A DNA stretch of 32,000 nucleotides from Candidatus Jordarchaeales archaeon (GTDB lineage: Archaea > Asgardarchaeota > Jordiarchaeia > Jordiarchaeales > Freyrarchaeaceae), in assembly GCA_038889235.1 (NCBI GenBank), contig JAWAHN010000002.1, forward strand, positions 14,356 through 46,355. The letters are read 5' to 3'. A program made the position numbers and the translations under genes. Shown one piece after another: positions 458 through 32,000 of the stretch (positions within the stretch are counted from its first letter, which is position 1; each line of letters starts with the position of its first letter). The notes beneath the pieces are model-generated. The model saw nothing but the letters and a program-made list of their open reading frames with translations, had not been told where the DNA came from and searched no databases.

Positions 458-3301
458 TCAAGGCATCCTACTGAGCATCTGCTCGAGCTCCCTGATCTTC
501 CTAAGCGCCTTCCTCATAAGGAAAGTGTACTCCTCCTCGCTCATCCTCCCGAGCGAATAGTACTCGTGCAGGCTCTGAAGGTACTTCCGAATCCGCTGTA
601 TCTTGGCGGCAACCTCCTCGCGCGAAGGAACCTCCTCGTCCCCCCCTCTACCAACACCGCCCTCAACCTCCTCAGCCTCTCTCTTCGCCGGCGGCGCCTC
701 AGCCGCGGTTTCAATTGGAGCCACCGGCGGAGCTACAACCCTCCTCCTCTCCCTCCTCGGTGGGGGCACCCACTCCCCCTTCACCTCTTTCAGCTCCTTC
801 TCCAAGGCACCTTTAAGCCTAGCCGCCTCCTCCCTACTGGGAGCGGTGACCTCAACGGCGACCAGCGTAGCGTCAACACTCAAACCCACTGCTGCAGCCA
901 GCCTCGCCGCACCTCTCCCCGCCAGGACCACTACCTCCTCCCCGGGTTGCTCGGAGACCTCCCATCCTTGGGACGCCAACACCTCCTTCAGCTTCCCGAC
1001 GACGAGCGACGGGTTAACTTTAACAGCCAACTGGAACCCCGACGACTCGGCCTTCTGCGACGGGTAGAGGTGTTCGTGAAACCTGTACTTAACCAGCCTG
1101 GAAAGGTAGTCGAGCGCCAAATCCTGCGGCACGTCGAGAACCCTGACGCCCACTGTTGGCTCAATCGTGGCTTCAGGCGGCCTAGCAGCCTCGCCCCCCT
1201 CCACGCCCCTAAATATATCCACCGCCTTTGTTTCGCTTACTTCAGACGGCTTAGCAGCTCCCTCAGCAGCCTCACCTCCTACCCCTTCAGCCGCTGTGCT
1301 GGGTGTGGCCTCCCTTCCGGCGTGTTTGCTCACACGCGGCCTAACCTTCACCACGAAGGCTCTCCCGGTCTCCGCCGACACGTCTGAGACCACTGCTACC
1401 CCGGTCGGAAGTCTGCGTATTAAGTCCTCAGCCAATTTTGGAACCACGTTAGGCGACCTCCTCCTGAAAGCCTCCACGTCCGCCTCGAAGACCAGTCTGT
1501 GTGCGATCACCACGTCTACTTGGGACAACACGCGGTCGTCTGTGGCTGAGGGCTGCTGTGTGGCGAGGACGAGGGCACACCCAGGCTTCCTCCCGAGAGT
1601 GGCGTACTCCACTAGAGGCTTTGAGGCAGCGGTCTCCCCCTTGGCTGGGATTAGCGTGTGCGCCTCGTCCACCATGAGCCACGTGACAGGTATACCCCCC
1701 GCCCCCTTACGCCCCGCCTCCTCAGCCCTCGCTTCCCTTTTCCTCCTCTCCAGTATCTTCCTCGCCAGCAGTCCTACCACGAGCCCCCGCAGCTCCCCGG
1801 TCAGCGTGCTGACATCTACCACCGACACGGTGTTCGGCTTAACTATTTCCTCCAAGGGTGTGCCTTCCTTCGAGAAAATCCCCCACCCCTTTGCCGCCAG
1901 CAGTCTCGAAACCACCGCCCTCCTCGTGTCCGGCTTAAACCCCCTCTCACGCGACAGTATCTCCTTTGACGTCTCAATGCACTCGATTAAGTCGTCGACG
2001 GAGTACTCGTCACCCTTACCCTCAACCTTCACCTCTCTCCCTTCTATGAAGGCGGCATACCCCTCCCTAACCTGTACCAGTGCCTTCTCGATCAGAAGTC
2101 CGGGTGGGCTGAACCTTTCAACACCGAAAGCGTAACACCAGTCGTCAACCGTCAAGTCCGACGGCTTCACGGAGAACGGCACATCCCTAGTTGTCTCCGG
2201 CAGCTCTCCATAAACCCCCAACGGGACGAAGACCCTGACATTGCTAAACCCCTTAGGCTCCAGCCCCCACTCCCTAACCCTCCTCAGCTCATCCGCCTCG
2301 CTGCTCGGCTGCTTCACGCTCCAGAACACACCAATCGGGTCAACTATGACGACCGCCACCCCAAGACCTGAACGCGCAATCTCCTCGGCTAGGACGCCCA
2401 GCGTGTAGGACTTCCCCGACCCCCGCTGGCCGCATATGAAGACAACGTGCGGCTTAAGCACGTCGAGAAGCACAGGGCGCCCCGCCAGCTCCCCCCTCTC
2501 CCATACGCGTCCAATATAGGCGAGCCCACGGCTCACCTCGCGCTCCTCCCTAGTCCTGCCGAGCACCACCCCCTCCCCCACCTCGTCCAACATCACCTCC
2601 AAGGGTGCCCCAACATCGAACACGTCTCCCGGAGCATCCCTCCTCCGCGCCCTCAACTCCCCTAAGAGAGCGGAGAGAGCCCTCCATACGTCTTCAGCAT
2701 TGTCCAAGCTCAGGGATTCAAACACCTTCTCCCGGTCACGCACCCCTTCCGGGTAAAAATTCGGGTCGAAGTTGCAGACCTCCCAGCATGCGAGCGCGGC
2801 ATCCTCTCCAAGCACGCCTGCTGCTTCATCGAAAAACCTTCTCTCTCCCGTCGCCCCGTAGAGCGCCAGAACCCCCCTGGCCCTCTCCACCCCGCTCAGC
2901 CTGTCCACAGCCTCCCTCATCTTCGACAATAACTCCCCACGCCCGGTAGCCCAGTAGACCTCCAGGAGTACTTGGAGGAGTGCCACGTCGACGTACGTTG
3001 TTCTGAAGGCGTAGTCGGCCAGTCTTCCAAGTGCCTCCTCAGTCCTCCCCCCGGGAGCCAGCCTTAGGGCGCGCGCTGCAGCGTTCAGCCTGCCCCCCGC
3101 ACTTCCTCCTTCAAGTATCATGCCGGCCAGCTTGTCCGCTTCGGCCACCGCTCTCTCCAAGAACTCTCTTCTACCGGTCAGCTGGTAGACTGCAGCGAGG
3201 GCGCAGGTTCCCTCCCCTCCCGAGAGGCTTAACACGTCAACCTTTCCCAGAATGGTGTGGAGTAGCTCGCAGACGGGTCTTCCTCTTTCAAGCATAGGCA
3301 A
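458..3301 (-). CDS. Multidomain HerA/FtsK-superfamily ATPase (DUF87/COG0433-like core) with N-terminal helical repeats and C-terminal alpha/beta plus SHOCT-like modules
   Basis: 947-aa ORF with PHVVFICGQRGSGKS (Walker A), IVDPIG, WLMVDEAH (Walker B), GRKPG and LATQQP motifs typical of HerA-like ATPases. Start is TTG 3301 or ATG 3295. Confidence 0.85.
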   Translation of the reverse strand: MPMLERGRPVCELLHTILGKVDVLSLSGGEGTCALAAVYQLTGRREFLERAVAEADKLAGMILEGGSAGGRLNAAARALRLAPGGRTEEALGRLADYAFRTTYVDVALLQVLLEVYWATGRGELLSKMREAVDRLSGVERARGVLALYGATGERRFFDEAAGVLGEDAALACWEVCNFDPNFYPEGVRDREKVFESLSLDNAEDVWRALSALLGELRARRRDAPGDVFDVGAPLEVMLDEVGEGVVLGRTREEREVSRGLAYIGRVWERGELAGRPVLLDVLKPHVVFICGQRGSGKSYTLGVLAEEIARSGLGVAVVIVDPIGVFWSVKQPSSEADELRRVREWGLEPKGFSNVRVFVPLGVYGELPETTRDVPFSVKPSDLTVDDWCYAFGVERFSPPGLLIEKALVQVREGYAAFIEGREVKVEGKGDEYSVDDLIECIETSKEILSRERGFKPDTRRAVVSRLLAAKGWGIFSKEGTPLEEIVKPNTVSVVDVSTLTGELRGLVVGLLARKILERRKREARAEEAGRKGAGGIPVTWLMVDEAHTLIPAKGETAASKPLVEYATLGRKPGCALVLATQQPSATDDRVLSQVDVVIAHRLVFEADVEAFRRRSPNVVPKLAEDLIRRLPTGVAVVSDVSAETGRAFVVKVRPRVSKHAGREATPSTAAEGVGGEAAEGAAKPSEVSETKAVDIFRGVEGGEAARPPEATIEPTVGVRVLDVPQDLALDYLSRLVKYRFHEHLYPSQKAESSGFQLAVKVNPSLVVGKLKEVLASQGWEVSEQPGEEVVVLAGRGAARLAAAVGLSVDATLVAVEVTAPSREEAARLKGALEKELKEVKGEWVPPPRRERRRVVAPPVAPIETAAEAPPAKREAEEVEGGVGRGGDEEVPSREEVAAKIQRIRKYLQSLHEYYSLGRMSEEEYTFLMRKALRKIRELEQMLSRMP

Positions 3302-3306
3302 CCCGG

Positions 3307-3927
3307 TTACAGCTCCTCTTTAAGCTTCTTGATGTCTTTCTCCAGCTCGGCTATCTTTCCAGCCGGCACGGAGGGCAGCTTAACCCCTGTCTCGACGCCT
3401 ATCTCCTGGTCTATCTCGGTCAGCACGTCCACTACTTCTTTCGTGGTGACGTCGGTGGACATGGCCATTTTCTCGAAGCCAGCTTCAGTCATGTCGTGAG
3501 CTATGTCGAACTCCCTCATCGAAGCATCTATCTCGTCCACAAGTTGAGCGACGTCTGGGAGGCTAACCGTGCTCTTCAACCCTTCAAGGGCCGCCTTTAT
3601 TCCGGAGAGCGTGCTGGCGACCTCGTAAACCGACTGGCTCTGCCTCAGCCTCACAACCATCCCTTGGATCCTCATTCTGTAAGCGTCTGTAGCCAGAGCC
3701 CACTTCTGGTACCTTAGGAAATGCTCGGCGTACATCTTCGCCGCGTCGTTGTTTCCAGCCATGCGGTAGCGCTTAGCCTCTTCCCTGCTCCTCTTAGCCT
3801 CCCTCTCGAGCTCCTTCTTGTGGTACTCGAGCTTCCTCGTGAAGACCTCCAGCTTGAATATAACGTCTTTGAGGTTTGGCCCCCCTTTGAGCCAGCTCAG
3901 AAACTTCTTGAATGACATGGAGACCAT
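3307..3927 (-). CDS. ESCRT-III protein, Vps2/24/46 (Did2/CHMP1)-like (ESCRT-IIIA)
   Basis: All-helical 206 aa. AKRYRMAGNNDAAKMYAEHFLRYQK...RIQGMVVRLRQ matches the CHMP1/Did2 pattern. It has an amphipathic N-terminus (MSFKKFLSWLKG), an acidic C-half and a terminal ELEKDIKKLKEEL helix. Alternative start ATG 3918. Confidence 0.85.
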   Translation of the reverse strand: MVSMSFKKFLSWLKGGPNLKDVIFKLEVFTRKLEYHKKELEREAKRSREEAKRYRMAGNNDAAKMYAEHFLRYQKWALATDAYRMRIQGMVVRLRQSQSVYEVASTLSGIKAALEGLKSTVSLPDVAQLVDEIDASMREFDIAHDMTEAGFEKMAMSTDVTTKEVVDVLTEIDQEIGVETGVKLPSVPAGKIAELEKDIKKLKEEL

Positions 3928-5903: not shown

Positions 5904-7401
<1,498 letters not shown>

Positions 7402-7623: not shown

Positions 7624-8793
7624 TTAGTGTGGTTTTAGTGGGGTTATGATGGCTGTTAGGGGTCCTTGTGGTGTGTGTGCTTTTTCTGAGACTATTTTTT
7701 GTATTCCTGCTGCTTTCGCTATTTGTTGGGTTATTTCGTCTAGGCTTATGTTGGTGTAGAGTGCTATGGTGTGGTTTTCTCTCATTCTTGGGAGGAATTG
7801 TAGTAGTAGTGGGTTTGCTTGTTTTCCGGTTTTGGGGTTGCATGGTGTTACCAGTATTCTTCTGCTTTCTGGTGTTGTTGCTGTTTTTTCGGTTGCGTAT
7901 TGGAGCTGGTTTACTGTTACTTTTTCTCCTAGGTCTGTTGTTCCTTCGTAGTTTTCGAGTTCTTCTACTAGTTCTTGGTCTGGTTGGAATGGTTCTGGTT
8001 TGTGGATTTTGAGCACGAGGTATAGTGGTTCGGGGTATTTTTCCGCGGCTTTTTTGGCCCTGCTGGCTGCATCTTTCACTGTTGCTGCCTCCACGATTAC
8101 GGGGCCTCCTGTGGTTTTCCTTTTTCCTCCGGTTGTCGGGGTTGTGGTTTGGCTTAGCGCGCTTTTCAGCTCTTCTTCGGCTGTCTTGTAAATGTGTGCT
8201 GACGCTGATATCGTGGTGGTTGTCCCAACGGATTCCACTCCTTTAATGTGTGAGGCTGCCTCTGTGAGGAAGGCCATGTTTATCCCTGCCACGTCTTCCG
8301 GCCATGCTCTCGCCATGTCGTTGCTTCTGATGTACGCGATGGCGTTGACCGTGTCTCCAAACCTGTGGAGAATTATCATGCTTATGCATGGCGGGTTAGG
8401 GTTGGAGGTGTCGGACGCCGGGTTCCAGAACTGTATCAGGGCGGTGTCGCTCCTCTTGAGCGCCTCTCCCGCTTTCACGACTTGGTTGACCCCGAACCTC
8501 TTTCTCGCGCACCACCCGTAGGTGTAGGTGTGCCCGCCTTTTTCAGCCGTCAGGTACTGGGGTATGTAGCTTTCCTTGAGCGTTTTCTCGTCCATTCCTA
8601 TGTAGCCGCGGGGGAGTATGGGTCCGCTCCTCCATGCTGTTAGGTGTATCACGCATCCTATTGTTTCGAGCGTCTCCTGCCTTTTGTCTTCCGTCGTCAC
8701 GGGTATGCCTTTCTCCAGTATCAGCCTGTTAGCCTGCCTCCAGGCTGCGTCCACGTGGCGCGCTCTTATAACGTATGGGCCGTAGGGTTTCAC
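7624..8793 (-). CDS. Thymidylate synthase-fold protein, tandem domains (catalytic N-domain plus degenerate C-domain)
   Basis: YTYG, NQV, FWNP, PPC(136), RSND(156-159) and SAHIY(198-202) are in the N-half. A second degenerate copy carries NQL..PESRR..NP..LLLQFLPR. GTG start overlaps the upstream stop (GTGA). Confidence 0.82.
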   Translation of the reverse strand: MKPYGPYVIRARHVDAAWRQANRLILEKGIPVTTEDKRQETLETIGCVIHLTAWRSGPILPRGYIGMDEKTLKESYIPQYLTAEKGGHTYTYGWCARKRFGVNQVVKAGEALKRSDTALIQFWNPASDTSNPNPPCISMIILHRFGDTVNAIAYIRSNDMARAWPEDVAGINMAFLTEAASHIKGVESVGTTTTISASAHIYKTAEEELKSALSQTTTPTTGGKRKTTGGPVIVEAATVKDAASRAKKAAEKYPEPLYLVLKIHKPEPFQPDQELVEELENYEGTTDLGEKVTVNQLQYATEKTATTPESRRILVTPCNPKTGKQANPLLLQFLPRMRENHTIALYTNISLDEITQQIAKAAGIQKIVSEKAHTPQGPLTAIITPLKPH

Positions 8794-10391
8794 TTTGCCT
8801 CCCTCACCTTATAGTATGGGTGGACTGGCCTAGGAAGTGTTCCGAGGACGTTGCGTGCCTCATCCGCCACGGCGGCTTCGGCTGCTGCCACTAGTGGGAA
8901 GACTTTCTCCGCGTTCCTGATGGGCCCGTAAAGATTGAGGTCCACTCCGTATAGTGACGGTAGAGCGTATATGAAGGAGAAGTCCATTTTCTGTCTGAGC
9001 TCGCGCGGCACCCCTGCAACCATGTTGTGTATGCCTATGGCTGTAGGGTAGCCGTAAAGCTCTTTAAACACCCACGCGGCGTGAAGTGCCTCTATGCCGC
9101 CCTCACCGAGTATCGGGACTCCTGGGTCCAGTATGGCTCCCTCAACAACCCCCCCAACCCCTGACAGCATAGTTTCAGCCTTCTTCAACCTTTCCTCTAG
9201 CGTGAAGCCGTAAGCCAGGATTATGGCGTACCTTACCGGCGCTATTCTGTGTAGGAGCTCAGTCTCCCTCCCACCGGACCCCGTAACCGAGTTGTACACG
9301 GTTCTGTGATCCAGCCCCACCTCCTTCGCCGTCTCCATCGCTTCGACGCGCGCCTCGAGACTTGTCGAGTCAATTATTATAGGCGCGTCTGTCACATCTG
9401 CTACGAAGAGCAGATACCTGGATAGTGCTTCACCCGTCTCGCCAACAACGTGGACCATTGATGGTATGCAGTACTCGTCTGAGAGCTCCGCCTGTCTGAC
9501 AACAAGCCCCTCGGCGGCCTCCTCGTCGAAGACCCCTCTAACTGGGTCCTTAACCACGGGATCCTTCCTGTAGAACAGCGTGCCAGCCAGAACAATGGAG
9601 TACTCACCCCTCTGCCCGCCGAGCTTAACCCCCGCCACGTCGTAAACCCTCAGCTCACTTCTCCTATAGAACAGTGCGCTCAAGGGCTCAGCCCCCCTCT
9701 CCCTCCACCATCCCCCCTCCATTAGGCGTGCAAGCGCCCCCCTCCAGTCGTACTTCTCCTCTTCGAGGGGCGGAATCAGGGGTGGCTCAGGGTACTCTTC
9801 AACATGCCTCTCGGCGAGCAGGCGCATTTGCGCCACTATCTTCTCCGGGCTCCTTTCCCCCCGCAAGTCCACCAGTTCGACCTGCCTCCTAAACCTCTCG
9901 ACGACCACGTGTGGCTCCCCCACCCTGAAGTACTTGGGGTGAAGGAATGGTATAGTCCCCTCGCTCCCGATAACCCTGTAATCCTGCCCTATGCCGTTTT
10001 TGTAGAGGGCCACGAGCGTCTGTCCCGGGGCGTGCCCCACAACCTCCTCACCACAGACGACTAGAAACCTTATTCTGTTGTTGGAAACTATGTTCTGAAT
10101 AACCCTGGCAACCCCGTCGTTCTCCGTCTCACACGGCCCAGCTATGGCTACGAGGTCGGCTGCCAGAGAAACAATTTTCTCCGGCAGGTCGTGCGAGCCA
10201 CACGTGACCACAGCGAAAGCCGCGTCATCCCTCCCAACCACGTAGTCCCCTGAAATGTACGGCCATTTCGCCACATCAACCACCGCGTTGAAAGGTGTTC
10301 GCCCAAACAACACGGCTACATCAAACTCAGAAAGAGCCGAGTTACATTTTTTACGCTCGGACTCAGCCCCTCCCGGGTTTAAGGAGCTCAC
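8790..10391 (-). CDS. MtrA-MtrH fusion (corrinoid-binding MtrA domain plus methyl-tetrahydromethanopterin:corrinoid methyltransferase MtrH domain)
   Basis: N-half: WPYISGDY..G, AVVTCGSH, GPCETEN.G..RVIQNIVSNNRIRFLVVCGEEVVGHAPGQ (corrinoid His kept), IGSEGTIPF. C-half: VYDVAGVKLGGQRGEY..VLAGTLFY, IIIDST, VYNS. Confidence 0.9.
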   Translation of the reverse strand: MSSLNPGGAESERKKCNSALSEFDVAVLFGRTPFNAVVDVAKWPYISGDYVVGRDDAAFAVVTCGSHDLPEKIVSLAADLVAIAGPCETENDGVARVIQNIVSNNRIRFLVVCGEEVVGHAPGQTLVALYKNGIGQDYRVIGSEGTIPFLHPKYFRVGEPHVVVERFRRQVELVDLRGERSPEKIVAQMRLLAERHVEEYPEPPLIPPLEEEKYDWRGALARLMEGGWWRERGAEPLSALFYRRSELRVYDVAGVKLGGQRGEYSIVLAGTLFYRKDPVVKDPVRGVFDEEAAEGLVVRQAELSDEYCIPSMVHVVGETGEALSRYLLFVADVTDAPIIIDSTSLEARVEAMETAKEVGLDHRTVYNSVTGSGGRETELLHRIAPVRYAIILAYGFTLEERLKKAETMLSGVGGVVEGAILDPGVPILGEGGIEALHAAWVFKELYGYPTAIGIHNMVAGVPRELRQKMDFSFIYALPSLYGVDLNLYGPIRNAEKVFPLVAAAEAAVADEARNVLGTLPRPVHPYYKVREAK

Positions 10392-17494: not shown

Positions 17495-17633
17495 CGGTAG
17501 CCACCACTCGTTCTTAAAAGGGTGAAGTTGTTGTGAATTGCTAACACATCACCATTTTAAAAAGTTTTTCTTATCCCTCGATAACTTAGGCTCGCTTGAC
17601 AGGTCGTTAAGCTGGAGAGGGGTGCTGACACAC

Positions 17634-18560
17634 ATGAATGCAGTCGAAAAGGAGTTGGTTATAGTTGGCGGGGGCCCAGCGGGCCTTTCAGCCGCCATCT
17701 ACGCTTCGAGACTTGGGCTAAATGTCGTGCTCTTTGAAGCTAAGATGGTTGGTGGGCAAGCTGCCGAAGCTGCTGTGGTCGAAAACTACCCTGGCTTCGA
17801 CTCTATAAGGGGAATGGAGCTAGTTGAAAGAATGCGGCAGCAAGCCGAGAAATATGGATGCGAGATAAGGGAAATGGAAGCTGTGAAGAGGATAACGAGG
17901 GAGGGAGAAAAGTTCAGAGTGGTTACTAGTCTGGGAGAGTACCTTGCCAAGGCGGTGATAATCGCCACGGGTAGAGAGAAGAGGAAGCTCGGGGTTCCGG
18001 GAGAGGAGGAGTTCAAGGGGCGCGGGGTCAGCTACTGCGCCACGTGCGACGCCCCCCTTTACCGTGGTAAGAGGGTCCTCGTGGTTGGTGGGGGGAACAC
18101 CGCTGCAAGCGAGGCCCTCTACCTCTCGGAGAACGCTAAGGAAGTCCACCTAGTTCACAGGAGAAGTGACCTTAGAGCTGAAAAAGTGCTAAAAGAGAGG
18201 CTTAAGGAAAGGAACGTGGTATTCCACTGGAACAGCGTGGTGAAGAGAATAGAAGGCGACAAGCTCGTTAGGCGCGTGGTGATCCAAAACTTGGAGAGCG
18301 GGGAAGAAAGGGTGCTGGAAGTAGACGGCGTTTTCATAGCCGTTGGTGAGACACCGTCGAGCAGCATAGCATTGGAGCTGGGAGTGAAGCTCGACGAAGA
18401 AGGCTACATCATCGTTGACAGGAATCAGAGGACGAACGTTGAAGGGGTTTTCGCTGCGGGAGACGTAACAGGAGGAGTAATGCAGATAGTTAAAGCGGCA
18501 GGGGAAGGCGCTGTAGCAGCGGTCAACGCATACCTCTACATACGTAAGGGGTGGTACTGA
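17634..18560 (+). CDS. trxB: Thioredoxin-disulfide reductase
   Basis: IVGGGPAG, GVSYCATCD (CxxC), VVGGGNTA, VHRR, VFAAGD. ATG at 17634 follows AGGGGTG; the ORF-track extension from 17538 is unlikely. Confidence 0.93.
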   Translation: MNAVEKELVIVGGGPAGLSAAIYASRLGLNVVLFEAKMVGGQAAEAAVVENYPGFDSIRGMELVERMRQQAEKYGCEIREMEAVKRITREGEKFRVVTSLGEYLAKAVIIATGREKRKLGVPGEEEFKGRGVSYCATCDAPLYRGKRVLVVGGGNTAASEALYLSENAKEVHLVHRRSDLRAEKVLKERLKERNVVFHWNSVVKRIEGDKLVRRVVIQNLESGEERVLEVDGVFIAVGETPSSSIALELGVKLDEEGYIIVDRNQRTNVEGVFAAGDVTGGVMQIVKAAGEGAVAAVNAYLYIRKGWY

Positions 18561-19337: not shown

Positions 19338-20849
19338 TTGAAGATTATGACAAGTGGAGAGGTGCGGATAGCGGACTTAAACGCCGAGTTTCTAGGAGTC
19401 CCCCGCCTTCTCCTAATGGAGAACGCTGGGAGAAGCGTTGCAGACGCAATCTGTAATAGGGTTAAAGTTGAAGGGAAAAAGATTGCAGTTTTCTGTGGGC
19501 AGGGGGACAATGGAGGCGACGGCTTCGTCGCCGCGAGACACCTCGCCTTCCGCGGAGCTAAGGTAACAGTGATACTTGTAGGCGACGAGGAAGGCATCAG
19601 AACAAGCGAGGCAAAACGTAACTGGAACGCCATTAAGGCTATGTTTACCGTCGAAAAAATCTTGGTGAGAGATTCTAGGGAGGTAGTAGCACTTGAGGAA
19701 AAACTCGGCAACATAGACATCGTTGTTGACGCGCTGCTCGGAACCGGAGTAAGGGGAGAAGTAAGGGAACCCATCGCGTCGGCAATAGACTTGATTAACA
19801 GGATTAAGGGGTTTAAGGTCTCCGTAGACGTTCCTTCAGGGCTAAACCCGGACACCGGAGAGGTGTGCGGAAGGGCTGTTAAAGCAGACCTAACTGTTTG
19901 CCTCCACGCGGCCAAGCCCGCGCTTCCAAGCTCGCCCTTCACCGGTGAGCTCGAAGTTTATCCGATAGGCATCCCGCCTGAAGCCGAGCTCATAGCAGGT
20001 CCCGGAGACCTGGAAGCAGTGAAGATAAGACGCTTGCCTGAGTCACATAAAGGAGACCATGGGCGTGTGCTCGTCATAGGAGGAGGAAGGGACTATTCTG
20101 GGGCTCCAGCCCTAACCGCGCTCGCAGCTCTAGTTACAGGAGTGGACATAGTAGTCGTAGCAGCCCCATCTAGCGTAGCAGACACTATTCGTGCATACTC
20201 ACCAAACCTCATAGTGCGTCCTCTTCCAGGCGAGGTATACTCTCCCAAAGCACTTGAAAAAGTAAAGCGCCTCATAGACGGCGCGTCCGCACTAGCGATA
20301 GGACCCGGACTTGGGCTAGAGGAAGAAACCGTAGAAGCTGTGGTGGAAACGTTGAAGCTTGCTAGAGAGAAAGGCATGCCTACCGTCATCGACGCTGACG
20401 CGCTAAAAGCCATATCCGGGAAAGCGGAGAAGCTTATAAGCAGAAAAATGGTCTTGACACCACACCAAGGCGAGTTCTTCAGCCTTACGGGGGAAAAACT
20501 CCTCGGCAGGACTTTGGAGGAAAAGATAGAGGCTGTTAAAAGGTGGAGCAGGAATCTCGGAGCAACAATACTGCTCAAGGCGCACTGGGACATAATATCA
20601 GACGGCGAGAAAGTCAAGATTAACATCACGGGAAACCCGGGGATGACTGTTGGAGGGACAGGTGACGTACTCACAGGATGCTGCGCGGCGATACTCTCGT
20701 GGGGGAGAGACGCTTTTACAGCGGCAGTGGCAGCGGCATTCATAAACGGCAGAGCAGGAGACATCGCTGTCCAGCGAAAGGGATACCACATAACCGCAAC
20801 AGACGTGATCTCATACATTCCGCACGCAATGGGCGACGCTAACGAGTAA
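19338..20849 (+). CDS. nnr: Bifunctional NAD(P)H-hydrate epimerase/dehydratase (YjeF)
   Basis: LMENAG, GDNGGDG, VDALLGTG, SVDVPSG, HKGDHG, AIGPGLG, VIDADA, LTPHQGEF, GGTGDVL. Start TTG 19338 or ATG 19347. Confidence 0.95.
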   Translation: MKIMTSGEVRIADLNAEFLGVPRLLLMENAGRSVADAICNRVKVEGKKIAVFCGQGDNGGDGFVAARHLAFRGAKVTVILVGDEEGIRTSEAKRNWNAIKAMFTVEKILVRDSREVVALEEKLGNIDIVVDALLGTGVRGEVREPIASAIDLINRIKGFKVSVDVPSGLNPDTGEVCGRAVKADLTVCLHAAKPALPSSPFTGELEVYPIGIPPEAELIAGPGDLEAVKIRRLPESHKGDHGRVLVIGGGRDYSGAPALTALAALVTGVDIVVVAAPSSVADTIRAYSPNLIVRPLPGEVYSPKALEKVKRLIDGASALAIGPGLGLEEETVEAVVETLKLAREKGMPTVIDADALKAISGKAEKLISRKMVLTPHQGEFFSLTGEKLLGRTLEEKIEAVKRWSRNLGATILLKAHWDIISDGEKVKINITGNPGMTVGGTGDVLTGCCAAILSWGRDAFTAAVAAAFINGRAGDIAVQRKGYHITATDVISYIPHAMGDANE

Positions 20850-24694: not shown

Positions 24695-25249
24695 TTAAAT
24701 TTTTCCCTCCTGCGAGCCCTGACTACTCTTCTTAAATATAATCATCCTAGCTAAGTCGGCGAAAGCCTCGTTTATGTTCAAGCCCGTTTTAGCGCTAGTT
24801 TCGAAGTACAGCATATTATTCTTTATGGCGAACTCGAGCGCGTCTTCTAGGGGGACAGCTCGGGGCATATCACGCTTGTTCCCGATAAGGATTAACGGCA
24901 CACTACCACAATGAGTTCTAACCTCTTTGATCCATAAAGGCAGTCTCTCAAAACTCTCTACTTTGGTCAAATCGTAGACGCAGAAGCCGCCAACCGCACC
25001 CCTGTAATACAGCTGCCTGATGTGGCTGAACCTGTCCTGCCCGCTTTGGTCCCAGATCTGAAATTTAACCACTTTCCTCCCGAGGTGAGTGTCCACCTCG
25101 ATACTCTTCACGGCGAAGTCGACACCAACCGTCATCTTGTAACTTTCCTGGAATACACCCTCACTAAACCGCCTCGTTATAGAAGTTTTTCCAACGCCAC
25201 CGTCGCCAACTATCACAACCTTAAACAAGTACGCGTAATCCGCCGCCAT
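24695..25249 (-). CDS. Rab-like small GTPase
   Basis: G1 GDGGVGKTS, G2 YKMTVGVDF, G3 WDQSGQ, G4 NKRD, G5 ETSAK, plus YYRGA. ATG at 25249 (alternative 25267). Confidence 0.93.
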   Translation of the reverse strand: MAADYAYLFKVVIVGDGGVGKTSITRRFSEGVFQESYKMTVGVDFAVKSIEVDTHLGRKVVKFQIWDQSGQDRFSHIRQLYYRGAVGGFCVYDLTKVESFERLPLWIKEVRTHCGSVPLILIGNKRDMPRAVPLEDALEFAIKNNMLYFETSAKTGLNINEAFADLARMIIFKKSSQGSQEGKI

Positions 25250-25358
25250 AGTCCCTCCTCTCTCCACCGGTACATTCTGTAATACCCCTCTAGCAAAAGC
25301 CTAAACGACCAAAGCACCAAGTAAATTGGTCTTCGCCTTAATTATTAAGATTTTTTAT

Positions 25359-26195: not shown

Positions 26196-26318
26196 AGCCC
26201 CGGCCGGGCTTTGAACCCGGGACCTTCTCATTTCTGGCATACCACCACTATAACGGGTACCAGTGAGACGCTCTAACCAGGCTGAGCTTTCCCGCTATAG
26301 ATGAAGGGGTACCGGGGC
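26196..26318 (-). tRNA. tRNA-Thr(GGU) with two introns: 22 nt at 8/9 (26289-26310) and 26 nt at 37/38 (26232-26257); CCA not encoded
   Basis: Removing both inserts gives a full cloverleaf: acceptor GCCCCGG/CCGGGGC with U73, D-stem GCUC/GAGC, anticodon stem UCUCA/UGAGA with loop CUGGUAA, and T-stem CCGGG/CCCGG with loop UUCAAAG. Both inserts form 4-bp helices with 3-nt bulges. Confidence 0.9.
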
Positions 26319-26550: not shown

Positions 26551-26796
26551 CTTAGAATATCACTTCTTAGCATCCTAACGAAAAATTAAACGTTCCCGTC
26601 ACTCTCCTGTAAATTGTATCTTTGCGTCACCTTTTTCACAGCCTTTGGGCTCGAAAAGTTTTCCCGCTAACCTAAGGGTGATGCTTTAAGAGACGTGAAT
26701 GGCTTATCATCGGCTTATATCTCAAGCTGTGTGTGGAGGAACTTTAAAAAGGAGTTGCTGTTTGTCGTTTTTCATACACATTTACTGGGTGTTATC

Positions 26797-27978
26797 ATGG
26801 TTCGCAAGGTTGCTGTTGTAGGCTACGGGTGCCTAAAGATCGGCAAATATGGAGCCGAGCTTTCAGAGAACGAAATGGCGATTAAGGCGATAAAGTTGGC
26901 TTTGGAAGACGCTGGGATCTCAAAGGAGGACGTTGACGGTTTCGTCACAACTCCAAACTACCTTTTGACACTGGGCCTTCAGCTGTCTGTAGTCTCGGAG
27001 TACCTTAGGGTTTCGCCTAAGGTTGCGGCTGAGATCGCATGCGGCGGCATAGCTGCTGGTCTAGCGTTAAAACACGCGGTGAACGAAATAATGCTCGGCT
27101 ACGCTGACATCGTGGTTTGTTACGGCTCAGTTAAGGAGTCCATACGCTTCAAGAACATAGCGTTAATTGAACCAGGGATGGGCATTGAAATATACGACCC
27201 CGTTGTCCAACCCTACGCTGTGGCGGGCGTCATATGGGCTTATGCGTGCTCGGCTAGAAGGTACATGCACGAGTATGGCGCAACCGAAGAACACTTCGCT
27301 GCAGCCTGCGTGAGGGATAGGAATAACGCTAGATATAATCCCTGGGCGGCGTTCACCACTCCAATCACCGTTGAAGACGTATTAAAGTCCCCTGTCTTGT
27401 GTTCACCGTTAAAGCTCCTAGACTGCTCAGCTGCAAGAGATGGGGCTGCTGCAGTGATACTAGCGTCGGAAGAAAAAGCCCGAAAGATAACCGATACTCC
27501 AATATACATTGCTGGCATCGGGGAACATCACGACAATTCGAGCTTCATACCGACTGACAGCTGCGATAAACCTATAACATCATTCGTAGCTACTCGTGAA
27601 GCAGCCAGGCGAGCGTTAGACATGGCGAAGGTGGACGTTAACAACGTCGACGTAGCCGAACTTTACGCCCCCTTTAGCCCTCAAGAGCTCATGCTCCCAG
27701 AGGACATTGGATGGTTTAAGAAAGGAGAGATGGTTAAGGCGATAATGGACGGTTCCACAGAAATAGGTGGAAAAATTCCGATAAACACCGATGGCGGGCT
27801 CCTTTCTAGGGGGCATCCAGCCATGGTCACCCCCCTATACGAGGTAGTGAACATTGTGAGGCAGCTTAGGGGAGAAGCTGGGAAGCTTCAGGTGAGTGGC
27901 GCCGAGGTAGGTTTGATGCACTGTGAGGGAGGTATGCTCAACAACTGCATGGTTTTCATTTTCAGGAGAGGTGATTAA
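26797..27978 (+). CDS. Thiolase-family protein (SCP2-type / acetyl-CoA acyltransferase-like)
   Basis: VAVVGYG, IACGG, ARRYMHEYG, NARYNPWA, DCS...DGAAAVIL, INTDGGLLSRGHP. ATG 26797. Confidence 0.9.
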   Translation: MVRKVAVVGYGCLKIGKYGAELSENEMAIKAIKLALEDAGISKEDVDGFVTTPNYLLTLGLQLSVVSEYLRVSPKVAAEIACGGIAAGLALKHAVNEIMLGYADIVVCYGSVKESIRFKNIALIEPGMGIEIYDPVVQPYAVAGVIWAYACSARRYMHEYGATEEHFAAACVRDRNNARYNPWAAFTTPITVEDVLKSPVLCSPLKLLDCSAARDGAAAVILASEEKARKITDTPIYIAGIGEHHDNSSFIPTDSCDKPITSFVATREAARRALDMAKVDVNNVDVAELYAPFSPQELMLPEDIGWFKKGEMVKAIMDGSTEIGGKIPINTDGGLLSRGHPAMVTPLYEVVNIVRQLRGEAGKLQVSGAEVGLMHCEGGMLNNCMVFIFRRGD

Positions 27979-27979
27979 T

Positions 27980-28426
27980 GTGGCATATCACCCGGAAATA
28001 CTGTATCTTCAACCAAAGATCACAAGCGCGACGGCAAAATTCTGGGAGGGCCTGAAGAGCAGGAAGCTTCTAGCACCAGTGTGCAACGACTGCGGTGAAG
28101 TATTCTTCCCGCCAAGAGCGTTCTGTCCAAGATGCCTTTCAGAGAACTTAGGGTGGAGGGAACTCAGCGGCAAAGGGAAGCTTCACAGCTGGACAGAAGT
28201 CCACTATTTAGCCCCAAAACCTTACATACTCGGAGTCATAGACTTAGCGGAAGGCATAGGTAGAATGATCTCCAGAATTGAAGCGAAAAGTGATGAGCTA
28301 GAGATAGATATGCCAATGAAAATAGATTTCGTCGACGTTTCAGATAAACTCACCCTCTTCGTGTGGAAACCAGACAGGAGCAAAAGCAAAAACACCGAAA
28401 CAAAAAGCAGCCCTCAGCCACCTTGA
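27980..28426 (+). CDS. DUF35 Zn-ribbon/OB-fold protein (thiolase partner)
   Basis: FWEGLK, CNDCG..FFPPRAFCPRC, LSGKGKLHSWTEV, G..DLAEG. GTG 1 nt after the thiolase stop. Confidence 0.9.
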   Translation: MAYHPEILYLQPKITSATAKFWEGLKSRKLLAPVCNDCGEVFFPPRAFCPRCLSENLGWRELSGKGKLHSWTEVHYLAPKPYILGVIDLAEGIGRMISRIEAKSDELEIDMPMKIDFVDVSDKLTLFVWKPDRSKSKNTETKSSPQPP

Positions 28427-28879: not shown

Positions 28880-30607
28880 TTATTTTCCTTGCGAAAGCAT
28901 GTCCACTATGGTTAACGCGAGCACTTTGGCTGCCTCTAGCACTTCCTTAATTGACACCCTTTCGTTCGGTTGGTGTTTTTGGCTCTCTTCGCCTGGCCCG
29001 AAGGAAACCGCAGGAATCCCGCTTAGCATGCACGCTTTCACCATCATGACTTCCCTATCGCTCGTCACTTGTGCCTCCTCTCCCGTTACCTCCTTAATGT
29101 TCTTCTTCAAGACCTGCACTAAAGGATGCTCCTGCTGCACTTCTGTCGGAGGCTCCAAGATGAGTGTTTCAACCGTTACCTCAATGCCCTTGTCTTCCCC
29201 CTCTGTGACCCTTATGGCGTCCATTAAGCGATTGAACACTTCCTCCTCTTTCACCGTTGGGGGATACCTTATATCTATTGTTGCCTCAGCCTTGTTTGGA
29301 TCAGCGCCAGCCACAAGCCCTCCCTGCACGTTGCATATCTCTACGCTCACGCCTCCCATGAGAGGGTGTGGTGTCACGTCGAATTTGATTTCCGATATCC
29401 TCGATAGGAGCTTTACTAACGCCTGTAGAGCATTTGCCCCCTTGTAAGACATGGACGCGTAAGTCGATCGGTTTTTACAAGTAACTTTAACCCGCAGCAC
29501 CCCTCTTTCCGCAACGCATATACACTTGCTTCTCGTGCTTCCTCCAACTATCGCGTAATCCGCCCTTAATTTCTCCTCTCTTAGAAGATACCTTATTCCG
29601 AGCTCCCCTGTCCTTTCTTCATCCGCCGTAGCTGCAAGCAACACGGTGCCATTAAGTTGAATGTTTAGCTTCTTGATTGCGCGGAGGGCTAGGAGCATGG
29701 AAGTTAGGGGGCCTTTAGCGTCCACGCACCCTCTCCCTATAACATAATCGTCCTTCACAGTAGCCCTGAAAGGCGGATATATCCAGCCGTTCCCTGGTAC
29801 TACAACGTCGAGGTGGGCGGCCAGCAAGATCCTGGGCTCTCCTTCCCCCATCTTACCTATAACGTTCGTTCTTCCCTCAACTTTCTCGTACACTTCTGTT
29901 TGCGCTCCGATCTTGTACAGCTCACTTAACACTATTTCCGCAGCGCTTCTTTCATTACCAGGAGGGTTAACCGACTGTGCGGACACGAGGTCTCTTAGTA
30001 GGTCAATGGCGTAGTCCTTATCTTCGTCCACGGCGTTGAGGAGCTGTTTTCTGACTTCCTCCGTTATAACCAATGGAGCTGCCTTCTTCGCTTCCTCCTT
30101 AATTCCTAGGACGAGCCTGGCGATGGCCGTGAATGCTTGGTCAACCATGTACCTCGTCTTCGCACTCGTTTCGAAGTACAATGCTCCAATCTTTCTTGCT
30201 ACGCGCTCTGCTTCATATCTTGGAACACGCCTTTCGTTAACTAGGTCGTGTTTGTTTCCCACAAGTATTACTGGAACCTTGCCACACACGCTCGTGAGCT
30301 CATCATACCACTTTTCAACGTTCTCGAAACTTTTCACATTGGTTAGGTCAAAAACTATTACTCCGCCCTTCGCCTCAGTGTAAAAAAACGAGCGAAGGTG
30401 AGCGAAGCTTGGCTGGCCACCCAAATCCCAAAGTTGCAACGTGACTATCTTGTTATCTAGTTCTATCTTGTAAGAGGCAAAGTCTGCTCCCAGCGTTGGG
30501 CGGTAACTGGTCGGAAAAACATTCCTTGTGAGCCTCAGAATAAGGCTTGTTTTCCCTACACCTCCATCGCCTATAACAACTATCTTGAAGACGTATTCTT
30601 CTTGCAT
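28880..30607 (-). CDS. Rab-like small GTPase fused to an M20 (ArgE/DapE-like) metallopeptidase domain
   Basis: N-terminus: GDGGVGKTS, TLGADF, WDLGGQ, NKHD, ETSAK. C-terminus: LVSAQSVNPPGNE, AHLDVV, GRGCVDAKG, ADEE, FGPG...H..NE. One continuous frame; ATG 30607. Confidence 0.9.
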   Translation of the reverse strand: MQEEYVFKIVVIGDGGVGKTSLILRLTRNVFPTSYRPTLGADFASYKIELDNKIVTLQLWDLGGQPSFAHLRSFFYTEAKGGVIVFDLTNVKSFENVEKWYDELTSVCGKVPVILVGNKHDLVNERRVPRYEAERVARKIGALYFETSAKTRYMVDQAFTAIARLVLGIKEEAKKAAPLVITEEVRKQLLNAVDEDKDYAIDLLRDLVSAQSVNPPGNERSAAEIVLSELYKIGAQTEVYEKVEGRTNVIGKMGEGEPRILLAAHLDVVVPGNGWIYPPFRATVKDDYVIGRGCVDAKGPLTSMLLALRAIKKLNIQLNGTVLLAATADEERTGELGIRYLLREEKLRADYAIVGGSTRSKCICVAERGVLRVKVTCKNRSTYASMSYKGANALQALVKLLSRISEIKFDVTPHPLMGGVSVEICNVQGGLVAGADPNKAEATIDIRYPPTVKEEEVFNRLMDAIRVTEGEDKGIEVTVETLILEPPTEVQQEHPLVQVLKKNIKEVTGEEAQVTSDREVMMVKACMLSGIPAVSFGPGEESQKHQPNERVSIKEVLEAAKVLALTIVDMLSQGK

Positions 30608-31256: not shown

Positions 31257-32000
31257 GTGCTCGACGTTATAATCGTTGGGGCAGGACCTGCTGGGCTTGC
31301 AGCTGCGGCATTCACTGCAAGAAAAAAACTTAAAACTCTTGTGCTTGAAGCTGCCTCAACGGCAGGGGGTAAACCTGTCCTTCTCTATGCAAACAAAAAG
31401 GTCGATGACTTCATAGGTTTCCCTGACGGAGTCACAGGGCTCGAAATAGGGCAAGCCCTTGAACGCCACGCCAGGAGGTTCGGAGCCGAAATTAAGTGCA
31501 ATTCAAGGGTCGTAGACATATGTAGGACTGAAAATGGTTTCGTGGTAAAGGATGAAAACGGCGCAGAGTATTATGCTAAAGCTGTTATAATTGCTTTCGG
31601 TGTCCAGCCGCTTACCCACGCCGGTGTCAAGGGGGAAGACCTGTTTAAAGGTAGAGGGGTAAGGTACATTCTAGATGACGTTTCAGAGGTTAAGGGGAAG
31701 CGTGTCATAGTTGTTGGGGGCGGAGAAACTGCGGTCGAGACTGCGCTAAGAGCCAGCGGAGTTGCAGCTTCGGTCACACTAGTCCATAGGCGTAACATGC
31801 TGAGGGCTGATGAGTCCACAGTGGAACAATTAGTTGGTAGGGTCAAAGTTCTCTATGACACCATAGTTGAGGAATTAAGGGGGAATGGGTGGGTAAGAGA
31901 AGTCGTGACACTAAATTTGGAGACCGGGGAGAGACAAACGGTGGCCGCTGACGAAGTTATTTTTTGCGTAGGTCACAGCCCAGAAACGAACCTTTTATCT
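31257..32000 (+). CDS. TrxB-like flavoprotein lacking CxxC (probable ferredoxin/flavodoxin-NADP+ reductase); 3' end runs off the window
   Basis: Not in the ORF track. From GTG 31257 (GGAGG SD): VLDVIIVGAGPAGLAAA...GGKPVLLYANKKVDDFIGFP...GRGVRYILDD...VVGGGETA...VHRR. Confidence 0.8.
   Translation, partial: MLDVIIVGAGPAGLAAAAFTARKKLKTLVLEAASTAGGKPVLLYANKKVDDFIGFPDGVTGLEIGQALERHARRFGAEIKCNSRVVDICRTENGFVVKDENGAEYYAKAVIIAFGVQPLTHAGVKGEDLFKGRGVRYILDDVSEVKGKRVIVVGGGETAVETALRASGVAASVTLVHRRNMLRADESTVEQLVGRVKVLYDTIVEELRGNGWVREVVTLNLETGERQTVAADEVIFCVGHSPETNLLS

Follow-up and report, generated by a model that had tools for sequence, protein, structure and literature searches.

A protein of the Asgard order Jordarchaeales joins, on one chain, a Ras/Rab-like GTPase domain with all its motifs and an M20 body of the ArgE/DapE type whose active site is incomplete. 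We consider it somewhat better than even (probability of about 0.55) that this protein is a GTP switch carrying the M20 module as a non-catalytic binding or regulatory surface. The gene lies in the window analyzed here, a stretch of 32,000 nucleotides from Candidatus Jordarchaeales archaeon (contig JAWAHN010000002.1), and its fused relatives range from a complete metal site to none, so that the enzyme half seems to have turned into a non-catalytic partner of the switch. In the mechanism that we propose, an ancestral ArgE/DapE-type amidohydrolase would have joined a RasL GTPase in what was probably a single fusion event, and catalysis would have been lost separately in family f1 (that of the present protein) and in Odinarchaeia. 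Selection would mainly retain the catalytic-lobe body beside the linker, and the M20 surface would most likely serve as an effector or regulator in cis, making contacts that depend on the bound nucleotide with either the attached G domain or another protein. The features of the gene, all in window positions, are:

28880..30607, minus strand: whole gene, 575 aa, Ras/Rab-like G domain plus M20 (ArgE/DapE-type) body (translation, Pfam, NCBIfam)
30104..30607, minus strand: G domain, residues 1-168 (Pfam, PDB sequence match, motif alignment)
30056..30103, minus strand: linker, residues 169-184, 16 aa (pLDDT <50 at 171-178)
29504..30055, minus strand: first part of the M20 catalytic lobe, residues 185-368, with His265, Asp267, Asp296, Glu330 and Glu331 kept
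29888..29926, minus strand: patch 228-240, a candidate binding surface suggested by conservation contrast
29540..29542, minus strand: Gly356 at the Zn1-ligand position, equivalent to Haemophilus influenzae DapE E163 and Escherichia coli ArgE E169
29153..29503, minus strand: M20 dimerisation lobe, residues 369-485, with accelerated change in this genome
29459..29461, minus strand: Tyr383, replacing the His equivalent to DapE H194 (site table)
29306..29308, minus strand: Gly434, where the NxVP motif has its conserved Asn (DapE N245 region)
28883..29152, minus strand: second part of the M20 catalytic lobe, residues 486-575, with metal ligand His545 kept
29051-29053, minus strand: Glu519, replacing the loop V glycine

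Translation gives a single frame without internal stop, starting at an ATG (30607) that is preceded by GAGG 8 nt upstream; the homologues start at the same MQEEY. Pfam finds Ras at residues 8-166 (E 5.6e-52), Peptidase_M20 at 261-567 (7e-33) and M20_dimer at 365-469, and the NCBIfam ArgE/DapE model TIGR01910 passes its cut-off of 217.6 with 241 bits. The initial annotation, made from the sequence of this window, had described a Rab-like GTPase and an M20 domain in one uninterrupted frame, and both this layout and the linker sequence that it gave are borne out. The chance that an assembly or frame artefact joined two genes is negligible. The identical single-frame layout is unbroken in 11 of 11 Jordarchaeales genomes, ten of them other than the present one, and any TAA flagged in these frames is the terminal stop; in no relative do the two halves form separate genes divided by a stop close to the linker. 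In addition, the entire gene lies in one piece on a 97-kb contig of a different study; this contig is near-identical to ours and may represent the same population, and its sole listed difference in the open reading frame is a silent TTA to CTA change at codon 496. As to RNA, run X4 gave contigs of a strain that is 90-99% alike, which need not be transcripts, and raw-read run X6 gave 0 reads in the 3% of the run that was covered.

The G domain contains G1 (residues 13-20), the G2 Thr38, G3 (Asp61-Gln65), G4 (118-121) and G5 (148-150), which agree with GxxxxGK[ST], Thr, DxxGQ, NKxD and SAK, respectively. The claim of an intact G1-G5 set holds well beyond this genome, as an alignment of 21 fused proteins shows no variation at the key residues, Thr38 and Gln65 among them, and dN/dS of the domain is mostly 0.03-0.11 in all four groups. 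Judged by its motifs, the domain would be a complete GTP switch, predicted to bind and hydrolyze GTP. Its best PDB sequence match is the Thorarchaeota Rab 7EZB (E 1.9e-39); the Roc model PF08477 also matches (E 1e-30), with the Ras score far better. ‘RasL’ or ‘Rab-like’ is a fair name for it, yet it is not a Rab proper: eukaryote-type Rabs have a C-terminal hypervariable tail with geranylgeranylation cysteines, whereas here the last 40 residues contain no cysteine and the G domain continues into M20. The Asgard RasL/Rab-like GTPases (7EZB; PMC10933270) likewise have all G motifs and no prenylation cysteines, and the present protein additionally bears the 390-residue M20 body. A published phylogeny places no Asgard sequence as sister to Rabs (bioRxiv 2024.02.28.582541); our own G-domain tree took in Asgard sequences only.

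The M20 half has the expected catalytic lobe with an inserted dimerisation lobe according to Pfam, the predicted fold and Foldseek (5VO3: E 1e-27, target TM 0.82), and its closest solved M20s are DapE and ArgE. This two-lobed fold is common to the ArgE/DapE M20 metallo-deacylases (TIGR01910; 7UOI, 5VO3, 7RSF). The domain is thus full length, as had been annotated, but its active site is incomplete, a point that the initial annotation omitted. In ArgE, H80, E169 and D112 hold Zn1, which is the zinc that both structures contain, and DapE binds its substrate through E134, H194, R258, T325, G324 and N245 (PMC11270798); loop V is required for catalysis (PMC4012986). The present protein keeps His265, Asp296, the general base Glu330, Glu331, His545 and Arg447. 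Out of the five metal ligands (His, Asp, Glu, Glu/Asp, His) four are kept and the fourth in order, the Zn1 glutamate, is Gly356. Among the equivalents of H194, N245, R258 and the loop V glycine only Arg447 is retained, the others being Tyr383, Gly434 and Glu519. The His and Asn lost in this way normally reach the substrate from the partner subunit, and the glycine belongs to the GG substrate loop that covers the site. All six f1 proteins have Gly356 and Glu519; the first of these positions is Glu/Asp and the second Gly in the eight proteins of f2 and in 28 stand-alone relatives. Tyr383 and Gly434 are confined to the present genome among f1 proteins, and the f1 member P0005 has additionally lost the general base (Glu330Gly). 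With these replacements, the M20 half of the present protein probably does not work as a normal enzyme. It may have residual or altered hydrolysis, because four ligands, Glu330 and Arg447 are kept. Glu519 might stand in for the lost metal ligand, and a mono-metal pocket could bind a small ligand here, which would not extend to Odinarchaeum, where the whole site is gone. The NCBI label of the relatives, ‘ArgE/DapE family deacylase’, leaves the GTPase unmentioned.

Across the fused relatives the loss is graded. The sister family f2 has a complete M20 site in 8 of 8 proteins. The Odinarchaeia family f32 (607-612 aa) has a recognizable M20 domain with a dead site, from which four of the five ligands (Asp296, Glu331, Glu356 and His545) and the general base have been lost. 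In the 557-aa proteins of Odinarchaeum, no ligand is left and the entire site is gone together with about 23 residues around it. The C-terminal 360 residues of these proteins have no Pfam match, and Pfam alone misses the M20 relic. It does align to an M20 profile (hhalign 91%, E 9e-7), its language-model features (Atlas) match M20 clusters, and it is predicted to fold in an M20-like manner (pLDDT 77), with 50 of the 50 best Foldseek matches in the M20 family at high RMSDs and with two recognizable M20 rows in the alignment used for folding. Families f1 and f2 group together (98), which implies that catalysis was lost at least twice if f2 represents the ancestral state. With a complete site in f2, one ligand missing in f1, four in f32 and none left in Odinarchaeum, the fusion is a natural series in which the passage from enzyme to pseudoenzyme beside a GTPase can be studied.

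A GTP-switched amidohydrolase or peptidase, working in the present protein with a mono-metal site on a new substrate, is unlikely. The passing TIGR01910 score, the retained His265, Asp296, Glu330, Glu331, His545 and Arg447, and the complete site of the f2 proteins would all suit such an enzyme. However, the Zn1 ligand, loop V and both residues acting in trans are lost, P0005 has no general base, and Odinarchaeia retain the fusion without a usable site. The nucleotide-switched amidohydrolase that had been put forward for this gene is plausible for the sister family f2, given its complete site in 8 of 8 proteins, and fits only there.

Selection on the dead domains was assessed with dN/dS by the Nei-Gojobori method, and the ratios are rough because many dS values are near saturation. 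For the catalytic lobe, f32 has ratios of 0.04-0.06, Odinarchaeum 0.11-0.19 and f1 0.06-0.19. By these values, purifying selection persists on M20 domains that have lost their site, and they are not drifting. Orthologues free of a metal site and under purifying selection support the use of the M20 fold as a non-catalytic partner, a role for which the initial annotation had named a dimeriser or metabolite sensor. They also bear on the idea that the fusion is incidental, with two independent functions and the M20 half a decaying passenger. This is quite improbable: gene neighbors do vary between the families, and Asgard GTPases shuffle domains freely (bioRxiv 2020.10.19.343400), but the fusion occurs in 18 of 18 genomes of both groups, never split or truncated, and dN/dS on a dead domain is far below 1.

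The dimerisation lobe behaves differently from the catalytic lobe. In the dead lineages its dN/dS is looser (f32 0.07-0.11, Odinarchaeum 0.17-0.30), whereas in f2 the two lobes are about equally tight. In the present genome the lobe has 36 private changes versus 6 in a congener (p 3e-6), and over three congeners the counts are 29-36 versus 4-7 (p 3e-6 to 4e-5) with an in-family outgroup; the excess is weaker with distant outgroups (p 0.006-0.4) and is absent from the G domain and catalytic lobe of the same genome. Conserved dimerisation-lobe positions have been lost at 8 of 18 sites in the present protein, 0-1 in five f1 members and 9 in f32. These patterns bear on a second non-catalytic role, in which the M20 half would be kept solely to dimerise G domains and GTP hydrolysis would be triggered by G-G contact. 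In Roco proteins, COR dimerises the G domains. The present protein resembles Roc-COR in combining a small G domain with a dimerisation-capable domain on one chain; it differs in having M20 after the G domain and no COR, LRR or kinase (Pfam, Foldseek). ArgE/DapE enzymes dimerise through this very lobe (PMC4012986), which is present with the expected predicted fold in every fused version, and Asn392, Ala393 and Leu397 of the lobe helix show little or no variation. Since several of the lost lobe positions are substrate residues, the ability to dimerise may itself survive. Even so, no folded part is less constrained than this lobe in the degenerate lineages, and the dimeriser proposal is weakened because the lobe is the fastest-changing folded part in both the present genome and Odinarchaeum. 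We regard a dimeriser as doubtful, and the genome-specific loss together with the lobe-by-lobe pattern of selection speaks against its simple form.

In favor of a binding or regulatory surface, fusion-specific conserved residues, defined as those that the fused Jordarchaeales proteins have in common and stand-alone M20s seldom have, make up 36 of 138 in the catalytic lobe versus 5 of 62 in the dimerisation lobe (Fisher p 0.004). Within patch 228-240, 8 of 13 positions are fusion-specific (clustering permutation p 0.005), and the patch is variable in stand-alone M20s. This pattern is a lead, as kin share residues, and common ancestry instead of function may account for it. When the G domain and the M20 body were modeled as a complex with GTP and Mg, the score was 0.00, which gives no answer in either direction. 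More tentatively, the fusions may be a class of one-chain signaling proteins specific to Asgard archaea, in which a metabolic M20 enzyme has been given over to regulating a Rab-like GTPase or to sensing a ligand for it. N-acyl amino acids or peptides would then govern exchange or hydrolysis, and living lineages would preserve the stages from active enzyme to dead module.

Enzyme-derived non-catalytic modules have precedents in the HisRS-like domain of GCN2 and the M20-like domain of yeast Dug2. As in the present protein, a metabolic fold has been kept there without its chemistry, and to our knowledge none of these modules is joined to a small GTPase. The GTPase-M20 fusion differs from them in offering intact, half-lost and fully lost states for comparison.

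The fusion is also found in 7 of 7 Odinarchaeia genomes, so that a survey of taxonomic spread, which the initial annotation had recommended, gives the architecture in 18 of 18 genomes of Jordarchaeales and Odinarchaeia. The linker is 16 aa in the Jordarchaeales protein studied here and about 40-55 aa in Odinarchaeia. One of the Odinarchaeia proteins (P0133) has the NCBI label ‘Hodarchaeota’, which we rejected, as the same sequence occurs in a genome of Odinarchaeum's GTDB class (G309) with matching gene order. In 382 other Asgard genomes the fusion was not found with two profiles and 3-5 candidates scored per genome, which falls short of proof of absence since few candidates were scored in each and the assemblies are often incomplete. 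A search of 1.84 billion protein representatives gave only four full-length matches, all from Jordarchaeales or Odinarchaeia. About 100 other long Asgard Rab-like proteins gave no M20 signal. They include a large Loki-type family of 540-600 aa (P0139, P0171, P0190, P0209, P0225), with a Rab-like domain, a long Pro/Glu/Lys-rich low-complexity tail and a terminal zinc ribbon. A 339-aa protein of the f2 genomes (L039 3148-4167, minus strand; L040 3187-4206, minus strand) has a C-terminal Rab-like domain and, by eye, a longin-like N-terminal half.

A single origin of the fusion is likely, judging from profile scores, constrained-tree likelihoods and proximity of nnr. The Odinarchaeia C-terminal profile matches fused Jordarchaeales M20s at E 1e-28 to 1e-39, one stand-alone relative at 2e-28 and other Asgard M20s at 1e-15 or worse. 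In free trees the fused sequences are not one clade (2 changes each). Constraining them to one clade is not rejected for either the M20 domain (p-AU 0.88) or the G domain (p-AU 0.58), and each constrained tree has a likelihood above that of the free search; the Odinarchaeum relics were too divergent for the M20 tree and were omitted. The nnr gene directly follows the fusion in Odinarchaeia and lies 5-8 kb off in f1. The closest stand-alone relative of the fused M20s (L063 326-1549, minus strand, genome G304) groups with P0010. It is flanked by two genes that resemble, by eye, DUF917 hydantoin-pathway proteins, and these neighbors may hint at the ancestral substrate.

Asgard Rab-like GTPases are numerous, and their effectors and regulators are almost unknown. 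Because a candidate partner is covalently attached in the fusion, a single protein suffices to measure how that partner affects the switch. Asgard archaea are among the microbes closely related to eukaryotes. The fusion, seen only in Jordarchaeales and Odinarchaeia, does not lie on the line that leads directly to them. Each of the two domains is known; neither their combination nor its stepwise loss of catalysis turned up in the accessible literature. The initial annotation knew of no characterized example, and in agreement with it we found no description of a GTPase-M20 fusion in the accessible literature and one supplement set, a scope that leaves out most subscription papers. The accessible parts of this literature name longin, roadblock and other domains as Asgard GTPase fusion partners, and the word ‘peptidase’ is absent from both main texts consulted on such fusions.

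Gene neighbors differ between the fused families, and they suggest a signaling role. In Odinarchaeia, the fusion opens a same-strand run that continues with nnr and the genes of a gelsolin-domain protein and a roadblock protein (whole run, L043 6001-10688), an order repeated in L036-L038, L042, L044 and L080. The gelsolin protein (290 aa) has one N-terminal gelsolin domain (E 8e-8 to Asgard 2DGel3), the roadblock protein has 130 aa, and these neighbors could supply a GTPase regulator. In the window, the fusion heads a run with rpiA and, behind it, a second, stand-alone Rab-like GTPase of 190 aa (24695-25267, minus strand), and the fusion-rpiA-GTPase order is kept in same-genus genomes. The run is interrupted between fusion and rpiA by a thiolase and ChsH2-type zinc-ribbon/OB-fold pair (26695-28426, plus strand). 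Since this pair lies upstream of the fusion in the relative L073, the region has been rearranged; nnr (19338-20849) is inverted relative to L073. Two thioredoxin-reductase-like flavoproteins are encoded at 17538-18560 and 31257-32000, both on the plus strand, and one or two such genes are near the fusion in both Jordarchaeales families.

Elsewhere in the window, a 533-aa reading frame (8790-10391, minus strand) unites MtrA (residues 41-213) and MtrH (247-515) and adjoins a thymidylate-synthase-like gene (7624-8793). An Snf7 (ESCRT-III) gene is directly upstream of a gene for a 947-aa protein with a HerA/DUF87 ATPase domain (458-3927, minus strand). A sigma-70 promoter scan, a model unsuited to archaea, performed at about chance level, and a borderline tRNA match was found at 26204-26288. 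The GC content is about 0.58 over the first 13 kb and drops to about 0.48 beyond 21 kb. The window has no 23S rRNA gene and contains a complete archaeal 16S rRNA gene at 5904-7400 on the plus strand.
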